Origin: Amphiscolops sp. MND2022
Taxonomy: Eukaryota
Direction: 5' to 3'
NCBI GenBank assembly: GCA_964187785.1
Contig: OZ076409.1
Coordinates: 48,300,001-48,360,000, forward strand
DNA: 60,000 bases
Shown: positions 23,001 to 26,000 of the stretch, piece by piece
How positions within the stretch are numbered: position 1 is the first letter of the stretch
How the letters are laid out: every line of letters starts with the position of its first letter
The notes under the pieces: generated by a model
What the model was told of the DNA's origin: nothing
The model's database searches: none
The model's input: only the letters and a program-made list of their open reading frames with translations
Translations under genes and position numbers: made by a program

Positions 23001-26000
23001 GATGAGTCGATTGCACTAGCCGCAGAATTGGTGGAGGAGACCGGCGTTCTTGATTTTAGCAAGGAGACCTTTGTAGAGTTGATGGAACTAGCCGTTAAAG
23101 ATGTATGTCTGCAGGTTGGTCATAATTGGTACCAACAGAGAGATGGTCTGGCAATGGGATCTAAGTTGGCTGTTTTCTTGGCGAACATCTGGCTCAAGAG
23201 TTTGAACCGTTTCCGGGTGGTGGGAGCGAGGACATCGTGGACACCGTCACCACACGGCAGAGCCCGGTTGCTGCAGCTGACAGAGACCCATGTGGAAAAT
23301 GCGGAAGTCGTGTAACGAGACGGGGATATTCGATTCAGTGCAATCGTTATGCCTTCTGGTACCACAGGGCATGCCTTGACATGAGCGTACAGCAGATAAG
23401 AAGAGTAGCCGTTGGGTCATGGCACTGCGGATGCACAAGAGCAACGGTTGGACACCGGGAACCCCGTGCCAAGATATTTCACCGTTATATGGATGACATC
23501 TTGCGGAGCATGAAACAAGATGACGTAGACGGCATTTTGGCCAGAGTGAACGCACTTCATCCCAATTTGGAGTTCACTATTGAAACCGAGGATGGAAGTT
23601 TGATCCCGTTTCTGGATATGTTGATCACGAGATCTGACCAGCGCCTACACTCTGATTGGTATACGAAACCAACTGACACAGGATTGTGTCTGTCGTATCA
23701 CGCTTGCGCACCGACGAGATTTAAGCGCAACACCGCGTGGAAGGCATGGTCCATCGTATCCACCACGCCAGTTCTACGTGGGCGGCTTTTTACAGAGGAT
23801 TGGAGAAAGCTAAGGTGATCTGGGAACGCAATCAGTATCCACCCGCGTTTTATGATCCACTCGTGAGAGGGGTTATCGCGAAGATTATTCACGAGAACCC
23901 GGACCAGGTGGAGAAGGCGCGTAGCCGAGCAATCGTTTCGGAGAAGAGAATCAAAAGTTGCCTTATTTTACAATACAGAGGCAAAGTGTCGGACAAGATG
24001 TCGAAGAAAGTTAAGAGCATCTCACAGGACATAAATATCATCTTCACAACCTGTAAGATGAAGTCAGCCCTTCCCTCGCTCAAGGCCAAAGTCTCGAAGG
24101 ATTACTGTAGTCGTGTTGTATATAAAATCACATGTACAAGCTGCGCGGCTTGCTACGTCGGCCAGACAAGCCGACATCTCAAAACACGAGTGACAGAACA
24201 CCTGAAGGACTCAGCACCTGTCGGTTCACACCTTCTATCCTGCGCTGGGAATCAACCGGAAATAACAATCCTCCACAAGTGTCCTTCTCTGTCGAAACTT
24301 TTAACCTTGGAGGCCTTATACATTCAATCGCTGAACCCGACCATCAACAGCAGGCAGGAGTACGTGCAGCGGCCGCTAATGGTGAAACTCTAGACACAAT
24401 ATGTTTTGTCGTGGTCTTCCGCCTATATATTAAATTTAACCTGACGTCTTTTGTATACTTTTGTTAAGTTTTGTAAGTTTGTAGCGTTGAGCTTTTATAA
24501 ATGTATTGGAGTATTTTTAGACTGATGATGGCTTGTAGCCGAAAACGTTTTCAAGACATTTTTAAACATTGATCGCGTTTTCCCAAGATGTATTAAGATA
24601 GGCTATAAGAATTGTATTTAGAAAATTGATTATTTTTATTTGAAATCGAAAAAGTTTTCCGGTCAAATTATATCAGCATCCTCAGGAGATTTGGGGGCAA
24701 ATGATTGACTGAAAATTTTTCAAAAATATATTTTCAACTTTGTGAAAATCCAGAAATAATACAAATTTGATTAAATTTCGTCAAAATTTCAAATTTCTAA
24801 CTTTTGTAATTTTTGTCGCAGAAATTTCAAACAAACATTTTTGTAAACTAGATAAAATTCTAAGAAACTTTCCTAGCTGACACTTTTTCGTATTTGTGAC
24901 AGTTTTCAAGAAATTTGGATTTGAAATTTGCAATTTTATGCATTGGAGTTGCGATATTTTAGAACGCTACTGTATATAGGACCGAAAGATGTAAAAGTTC
25001 ATTAATTACACCACACTCATAGTGTTCTAAATGCCGGAGCGAACGGAATGACGTGGCCTACTTGACCAGTGGCATTTTTGACAAAGGATGAGCTGGAGGG
25101 GAGCAAAGCTCATCATAAACCGATTTTGGATTATGAATTTATATAGAAATTTTCATTTTGATCCTGTATAATTCGACTTTCAGTAATTTGGTTGCAATTT
25201 TCGAATCTAAGTAATCCGACTCTGGACAGGCAGCTAGTAGAAAGCTATAACTTACAAGTAATTCAGGAAGTGTTAAGAGAAACAAACGTCAAATCGCATG
25301 TATCACGAAGCGTTACAAAGAAACGGACCCTTTTAAAGTGCTGGTTGGAATGCTGCATAGTCTTGACAATGATTCTCACGATCTGTTCTGCACACTCTGC
25401 GTGGGTGAGACAAAAAAGCATTGCCTCTCCTATCTTGTCCCTCGAGCACGTCAATTCACTCATGATCTCGTCTAACTTTTCTTTGTTGCTGAAAAACAAA
25501 TATTCATGACCCATTAGCTATGCAACATAGGTAATTTTTAAAATAAAATATAAACCAATGCGCAAGGCTGAACTGGAAAAGCCTGCTCAAGATCGTTTCT
25601 ACTAATGTCGGAAAAAAATTATATATTTATGAAATCGAAAAACTGTAGCTGAATATACTTCAATTTGAAAAAGGAGAAACCAAGGGCTTTTAGCACGCTC
25701 ATAATAGTACTTAAACAAACTTAAAAAACTGAAAATTCTAGAACATCTTTTTAGCAAAACTCAGAAAAGTGTGAAATTTCTTTCTCTCCCTTTGTCATTT
25801 TTCTTCCAGATCAAGTCCCTCAATTAAACTTGGCTGTTCAAAAAATGGCACCTTTGAATACTTCTCAAGAAGTCGTTGTATCAAATTGAAACATTGCTCT
25901 CAAGATTTCATGAATTGTATAATTTGGTTCACCCGAAAAACCCAAGCAGATATCATGAGAAACCACCAATTTCAAAATTGATCCCTTCCAATTTGACGCT

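Follow-up and report, generated by a model that had tools for sequence, protein, structure and literature searches.

Histone-mark readers are known to be fused to the integration machinery of mobile elements: in chromoviruses a chromodomain sits on the Ty3/gypsy integrase, and its role in targeting has been shown experimentally. The elements described here differ from chromoviruses in both the reader and the element class, and in them targeting is a proposal. Closer in architecture are the Chlamys Penelope-like elements (PLEs), for which Craig et al. (2021) described PHD insertions in five Chlamydomonas families, placed between RT2a and RT3(A) of the reverse transcriptase (RT) or inside the endonuclease (EN) (PMC8557442). 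As in our elements, the PHD of Chlamys PLEs (for example Chlamys-3_cRei) lies inside a single RT-EN protein, and in three of the five listed families it lies within the RT. As far as the accessible text of that paper goes, Chlamys elements belong to green algae and have an N-terminal EN without CCHH, whereas the elements analyzed here live in an animal host, have a C-terminal EN with CCHH and carry the PHD after RT4(B') and before RT5(C), where it is fixed clade-wide. In the accessible supplement of PMC8557442, all five mentions of PHD concern Chlamys and acoel terms are absent. The original prediction that a PHD within a PLE RT had not been described is therefore overturned by Chlamys, and our clade is an independent variant of this architecture, not a first. 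In a search of the openly accessible literature, by titles and the beginnings of abstracts, no entry pointed to a PHD between B' and C or to how acoel PLEs are organized.

The window (the whole stretch of 60,000 nucleotides that was analyzed) contains a decayed, 5'-truncated member of a C-terminal-endonuclease Penelope-like clade at 22772..24590 on the plus strand, arranged as RT-PHD-RT-thumb-GIY-YIG plus 3' UTR and interrupted by two frameshifts. Three sister copies (L002, L003 and L004) are 95-96% identical to it in DNA, with alignments starting at 22772/22774; those of L003 and L004 reach 24589/24590. The mutual alignment of L003 and L004 extends over ~2.85 kb, so ~1 kb of the 5' end is missing from the window copy. 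Its coding sequence is spread over three frames, which hold RT motifs 1 to B', the PHD together with YMDD, and the thumb with GIY-YIG. RT fingers and palm with motifs 1-2, A and B' occupy 22772..23199 (RVT_1, E=1.3e-4) and end at the first break (23199..23200), where the copy is one base short relative to the in-frame sisters L002 and L003; the third sister has a deletion of its own at this position. A single missing base at ~23200 had been foreseen correctly; the T proposed to restore it had not, because both in-frame sisters have an A. The insert then runs through a variable N-side linker (23201..23290; 12.5% mean pairwise identity over 36 PHD-bearing rows), the C4HC3 PHD finger with a CxC last pair (23291..23434) and a variable C-side linker (23435..23473; 9% over the same 36 rows). 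RT motifs C, D and E and the start of the thumb follow at 23474..23733, up to a second break (23734..23737) with two extra nucleotides compared with all three sisters. The thumb, a Zn-finger-free linker and the C-terminal GIY-YIG domain (E=9.9e-7, above the cut-off) fill 23738..24393, with the motifs VVYKITCxxC..YVGQT at 24115-24168 and LEALYI at 24307, and a minimal hammerhead-like core (CTGATGA, stem II GGC/GCC, GAAA) lies at 24522..24552. All of these features are on the plus strand.

The motif positions named in the original prediction are accurate (GLAMG 23145, FEP 23201, CGKC 23291-23302, CNRY 23339-23350, WYHRAC 23357-23374, WHCGC 23420-23434 and YMDD 23486-23497), and its estimate of ~90 residues before IFHR agrees with the 88 that we counted between FEP and IFHR. 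The fourth zinc ligand of the finger is a Tyr (TAT, 23348-23350), which had been described as one change from TGT; all three sisters have TGT, so the Tyr reflects decay of the window copy and, with the two breaks, makes up three defects private to it. The usual spacer between B' and YxDD is longer than the 15-25 residues that had been assumed: GxAMG-to-YxDD measures 33 residues in 97 of the 120 nearest homologues, compared with 114 codons (341 nt + 1) in the window copy.

The identification of the insert as a PHD finger held up. The window stretch matches Pfam PHD with E=4.4e-4 at 20.7 bits, below the 24-bit cut-off, and intact relatives exceed that cut-off (L036 29.0, L018 27.5 and P0202 32.7 bits); the PHDs of the intact open reading frames L018, L021, L027 and L036 reach it or come near it. 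Across 28 families, at 37% mean identity, the first seven zinc ligands are kept in 27-28, and the last ligand pair is CxC in 18, CxxC in 8 and something else in 2. The core Trp two residues before the seventh ligand is found in 26 of 28 families. It is one of only three non-ligand columns conserved at 90% or more, together with a Val (28/28) and a Trp at the position two before the His (27/28). Over the 36 PHD-bearing rows, mean pairwise identity falls from 48-52% in the RT to 37% in the PHD and 9-13% in the linkers, and the Y, D and D of YxDD are invariant in all 102 aligned rows. The Pfam model PF27108, precomputed on nine of the 120 listed homologues, all of them PHD-bearing, may be a newer model of this PHD finger. 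A chance pattern of cysteines was considered and rejected.

Predicted structures agree with this identification. An AlphaFold2 model of the intact L021 protein, built from a 102-row alignment, reached a pLDDT of 92 and a pTM of 0.85, with a well predicted YxDD hairpin, a PHD at pLDDT 75-92 and linkers at 44-67 (65-67 on the N side, 44 at residues 531-540 on the C side). The top three Foldseek matches of this model were TERT (E=4.3e-7 to 1.2e-6), a similarity of fold only. The RT core is thus predicted to fold normally, with the PHD as a separate module, and by analogy with general RT structure the B'-C loop would face away from the active-site cleft. The finger modeled alone has a pLDDT of 83, and PHD fingers lead both fold searches, with the Pygopus PHD first (TM 0.71, E=2.5e-3; a modest Z of 7.1, rmsd 2.8 over 57 aligned residues). 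The same domain fills the top eight rows of a sequence-profile search (E=4.6e-10).

The insert is a trait of a lineage and not of one copy. Searching the genome with the stretch from PHD to motif E gave at least 155 matches, with 150 of 688 candidates scored. In loci L001-L090, which were chosen non-randomly from hit lists and of which a few overlap or count twice, we found 92 B'-C pairs: 68 were long, 64 of them with a PHD hit, and 24 were short, none with a PHD hit. The in-frame GxAMG-to-YxDD distance is 98-126 residues in PHD-bearing open reading frames and 33 in PHD-less ones. The 44 stop-free PHD-to-YxDD segments among these loci fall into 15 families at <70% identity, a lower bound on the number of diverged families that carry the insert in frame. 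This runs against the refuting outcome named in the original prediction, in which other copies would lack the insert or have it out of frame. Intact open reading frames of 853-905 aa were found for L018, L021 (890 aa), L027 and L036 (853 aa). A one-off secondary insertion was rejected, as the insert is in frame, fixed in the lineage and under purifying selection.

A related alternative is that the insert is a retained intron or secondary insertion that is removed from the mRNA of the working RT. PLEs can indeed keep introns, and those in 5' UTRs are described in the accessible text of PMC8557442. We nevertheless regard this as very improbable: selection acts on the insert at the protein level, every intact open reading frame that was read runs through the insert in frame, and GT-AG pairs that would restore a spacer of 31-35 codons are absent from three of the four families tested. 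The fourth, L018, has two such pairs, and no GT-AG pair yields exactly 33 codons in L021.

Tandem arrangements of the PHD-bearing L036 family were observed. A 39-kb contig (G000:C1820, loci L036 and L037) consists of 14 or more units of this family in head-to-tail order, repeating every ~2743 bp, and several of the units have intact 853-aa open reading frames. At L060:1066-4659 (G000:C533) and L061:2045-8500 (G000:C1:26598500-26608000), an in-frame tandem satellite repeats a short unit, from RT motif C to the thumb start, many times; a normal thumb with its EN follows, and the resulting open frames span 1198 and 2152 aa. L061 also holds a 463-aa open reading frame (2-1390, plus strand) that looks by eye like the envelope of an LTR element and has no significant Pfam match.

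Outside this genome, 120 homologues were listed when the RT half without the insert served as query, with a spacing of 33-34 in 98, 95-121 in 14 and unmeasurable in 8; of the 14 with long spacers, 13 are PHD-like by eye and 9 by a strict pattern. A profile search of 1.84 billion representatives added further B'-PHD-C proteins, 47-100% identical to the loci of this genome. Among 30 clusters checked, two gave carriers named to species, both Symsagittifera roscoffensis: XP_063725604.1 spans B' to the first four cysteines and then ends, and XP_063722202.1 ends before the finger and matches the PHD-bearing P0160 with 97.5% identity over 319 aa. Judging from these carriers, the host is likely an acoel or closely related to acoels. 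A word-index search with the insert region matched two proteins, and the best features in the ESM Atlas scored 0.79-0.81, in RT clusters only.

Phylogenetic analysis points to a single gain. With the insert excluded from the alignment, all 29 PHD-bearing RTs form one clade with a FastTree support of 1.0 (87 rows, 403 columns, about half of the PHD-less homologues included), and in a 52-row subset this clade has an SH-aLRT of 93.8 and 60 of 60 bootstraps. Placing the RT in a tree, a check that the original prediction had named, thus shows the PHD-bearing RTs to be monophyletic, with PHD-less families of the same genome branching outside, and a single clade argues for one origin of the insert. 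A separate PLE lineage (P0238, P0241 and P0272) has an independent, low-complexity insert at the B'-C site that is not a PHD; this unrelated insert suggests that the loop is permissive.

The clade has hallmarks of EN+ PLEs, among them the resemblance of its RT to telomerase RT noted above, in fold only. A single 890-aa open reading frame in L021 contains both RVT_1 and GIY-YIG above cut-off, and the GIY-YIG domain is C-terminal (residues 799-875), unlike the N-terminal EN of the Naiad/Chlamys clade. The pseudo-LTRs, partial tandems and 5' truncations of EN+ PLEs are represented by a ~92-bp terminal repeat in L003 and L004, truncated L021 copies and the head-to-tail array on C1820. The hammerhead-like core pattern follows 38 of 56 LEALxI matches, with stem II complementary in several different forms; an Rfam scan of eight loci returned neither a hammerhead nor any other match, and hammerhead folding energies were no better than those of shuffled sequences. 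In PHD-bearing rows covering the EN, the CCHH residues are kept in 23/25 and 25/25 (Cys) and 25/25 and 24/24 (His). The CX2-5CxxC finger in the RT-EN linker, a trait of Neptune and Nematis, occurs in 0 of 36 rows, with the linker fully covered in ~27. At the N terminus, DKG is present in 17-18 of 18 and GPKH in 17 of 17, with His in place of the Phe/Tyr of GxKF/Y. By motif, the elements fit the description of Penelope/Poseidon in the accessible text of PMC8557442 and are candidate members of that clade. They have in common with it the single open reading frame, DKG, the C-terminal GIY-YIG with CCHH, a linker between RT and EN that lacks a Zn finger, tandem arrays, short terminal repeats and, more tentatively, the hammerhead-like core. 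Unlike in Penelope/Poseidon, the B'-C interval is longer by 62-93 residues, which include a PHD, and GPKH stands for GxKF/Y.

Similar PHDs are found on other retrotransposons. LINEs of the CR1, L2 and Crack groups bear transposon-borne PHDs of a similar subtype, in ORF1 or between a 2A sequence and the APE endonuclease in ORF2, and the accessible part of PMC3708506 describes the 2A-PHD-APE layout for the ORF2 of Crack and CR1. Going by that description, the PHDs of these LINEs are N-terminal appendages or ORF1 domains, whereas the PLE finger sits in the polymerase palm. Against a profile of 16 PLE fingers, the best matches outside RTs were 2A-preceded PHDs of LINE ORF2-like proteins (51-55 bits). 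The PHDs of host genes and of one LINE ORF1, drawn from the 20 leading Pfam loci of this genome, scored 25 bits at most; the two sets were chosen in different ways, which makes this contrast a lead. Judged from these sequences, the finger was probably captured once, from a PHD carried by a transposon such as the 2A-PHD-APE type of LINE. The genome also has a young multi-copy LINE with a PHD-bearing ORF1 followed by an APE-like open reading frame (L154, L161-L164), the PHD of which is unlike the PLE finger (17-19 bits).

Purifying selection on the insert, another check named at the outset, is visible at the codon level. Across 12 families, the two RT halves have an omega of 0.028 and 0.047, the PHD one of 0.056 and the linkers one of 0.218, values from saturated synonymous sites (tree lengths 60-75) of which the ranking alone is meaningful. 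The PHD is thus near the RT halves and far below the linkers, and its ligands are kept. Pairwise pN/pS between close copies rested on too few changes.

The PHD-bearing families appear to have moved recently. The 3' end of L021 has 18 matches, 17 of them 97-100% identical and spread over many contigs. Ten of the 11 L021-family copies with both junctions share 11-13 bp, compared with 0 of 110 mismatched pairs, and these target duplications (L097-L112) are A/T-rich, with copies outside microsatellites. In the window copy no clear target duplication was found, the best being 7 nt. Near-identical copies together with 11-13-bp target duplications suggest that the PHD-bearing, enlarged RT is likely active. 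The L021 family may instead be mobilized in trans by a PHD-less RT. PHD-less families are equally young and numerous in this genome (40 matches).

What the finger binds is best approached through Pygopus, whose PHD is the best solved match (PDB 2vpe, 2xb1, 3zpv). In Pygo1, the cavity for K4me2 is walled by W366, Y341 and D352 with V350 and A356 at its base, and binding is lost or strongly reduced in the mutants W366E, V350E and A356E, according to the accessible text of PMC2726290. The base and proximal wall of this pocket have counterparts in our clade: Val occupies the V350 place in all 28 families (23312-23314 in the window), the A356 place is small (S/G/A) in 25 and the W366 place is Trp in 27 (23357-23359), and the I357 place is kept as well. 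This conservation favors histone reading, with an H3K4me ligand suggested by the retained Val, small residue and Trp. Against H3K4me reading, the other two walls are lost, with an aromatic residue at Y341 in 6 and Asp at D352 in 2 of 28 families; an acid at the E360 place is present in 11 of 28. The clade further differs from Pygopus in its CxC last pair (18/28 families) and in having no known HD1 partner. In addition, the Val and Trp are common in 2A-type transposon PHDs (27/33 and 29/33), and hence may mark a subfamily fold instead of a ligand.

Weighing these points, we give a probability of roughly 0.5 to the reading that the finger binds methylated H3K4 tails and thereby tethers the RT-endonuclease-RNA particle to chromatin during insertion. 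Under this scheme, one PHD would have been captured into the insertion-tolerant B'-C loop, and, held on two variable linkers, it would read H3K4me through a Pygopus-type Val/small/Trp pocket. The GIY-YIG of the tethered particle would then nick nearby A/T-rich DNA for target-primed reverse transcription. That an animal retrotransposon clade has incorporated a reader of H3K4 methylation in the palm of its telomerase-related RT, and uses it to pick its integration sites, we put forward more tentatively.

Net charge complicates histone reading and brings in other ligands. Over the 28 families it ranges from -8 to +10, and in 14 of the 18 with the CxC pair, a lineage that includes the window copy, it is +3 to +10, which is awkward for binding a basic tail. 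The finger could instead be functional with another ligand, such as element RNA, target DNA or a host protein, and aid processivity or assembly. Charges of +4 to +9 in the close families of the window copy (L006, L011, L012, L018 and L021) and the incomplete Pygo-type cage are in keeping with this, as is the second surface with which the Pygo PHD contacts BCL9 HD1 (PMC2726290, in its accessible text). Since charge is not conserved across the clade while the pocket Val and Trp are, we consider another ligand rather unlikely, if a serious competitor to H3K4me reading.

Flanking sequence gave no sign of targeting: 1.2-kb 3' flanks of PHD+ (n=15) and PHD-less (n=28) copies did not differ in GC content, CpG o/e or longest ORF (p=0.70, 0.53 and 0.12, respectively), in a comparison of one family each (L098, L113 and L114 excluded from the PHD+ set, L134 and L141 from the PHD-less set) that is a weak proxy without gene annotation and has little power. 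This similarity of flanks, the equal success of PHD-less families and the acceptance of unrelated inserts by the loop would also suit a ligandless passenger, kept folded because an unfolded loop insert would harm the RT. However, no clean loss of the PHD was seen even though linker lengths vary freely (spacing 95-126), and the seven short-spacer loci that were placed, four by tree (L064, L072, L073 and L076) and three by best match (L062, L075 and L090), all lie outside the clade. With a surface Trp kept in 27 of 28 families as well, we find a passenger improbable.

Whichever ligand the finger has, a PHD appears to have been gained once, within a catalytic domain, and has persisted in no fewer than 28 families. 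That PLE RTs captured a PHD twice independently, in algae and in animals and at different sites, points to convergent selection. Intact young PHD+ copies and young PHD-less controls coexist in one genome, which makes reader-guided targeting directly testable; if H3K4me reading is correct, these co-active families would constitute a natural experiment on the targeting of GIY-YIG elements. The B'-C loop is, moreover, a site at which an entire folded domain can be accommodated in a TERT-related RT, and could be useful for engineering targeted retro-elements.

The window copy itself lies antisense within an intron of a host gene on the minus strand (22152..25517), between two CID-coding exons (25266-25517 and 22152-22241) that match CID profile positions 2-47 (E=0.018) and 50-69 (E=0.0019), both weakly. 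A Surp match (E=4.5e-20) is located upstream of the CID exons at 27613-28050, and by its domain order the gene is probably U2SURP/SR140-like. Inverted arms of 255 nt (77%; 22369-22623 and 24723-24977) flank the element and probably belong to a non-autonomous DNA transposon that it entered; similar sequence surrounds L100, a copy of the L021 family. Elsewhere in the window are a Bel/Pao LTR-element remnant (17708-21132; DUF1759 gag, protease, RT and Peptidase_A17) that ends after RNase H, a Tc1/Tc3-like transposase fragment (1443-1949, minus strand) and a LINE-like ORF1/APE remnant (9118-10136, plus strand), the first open reading frame of which has no significant Pfam match.
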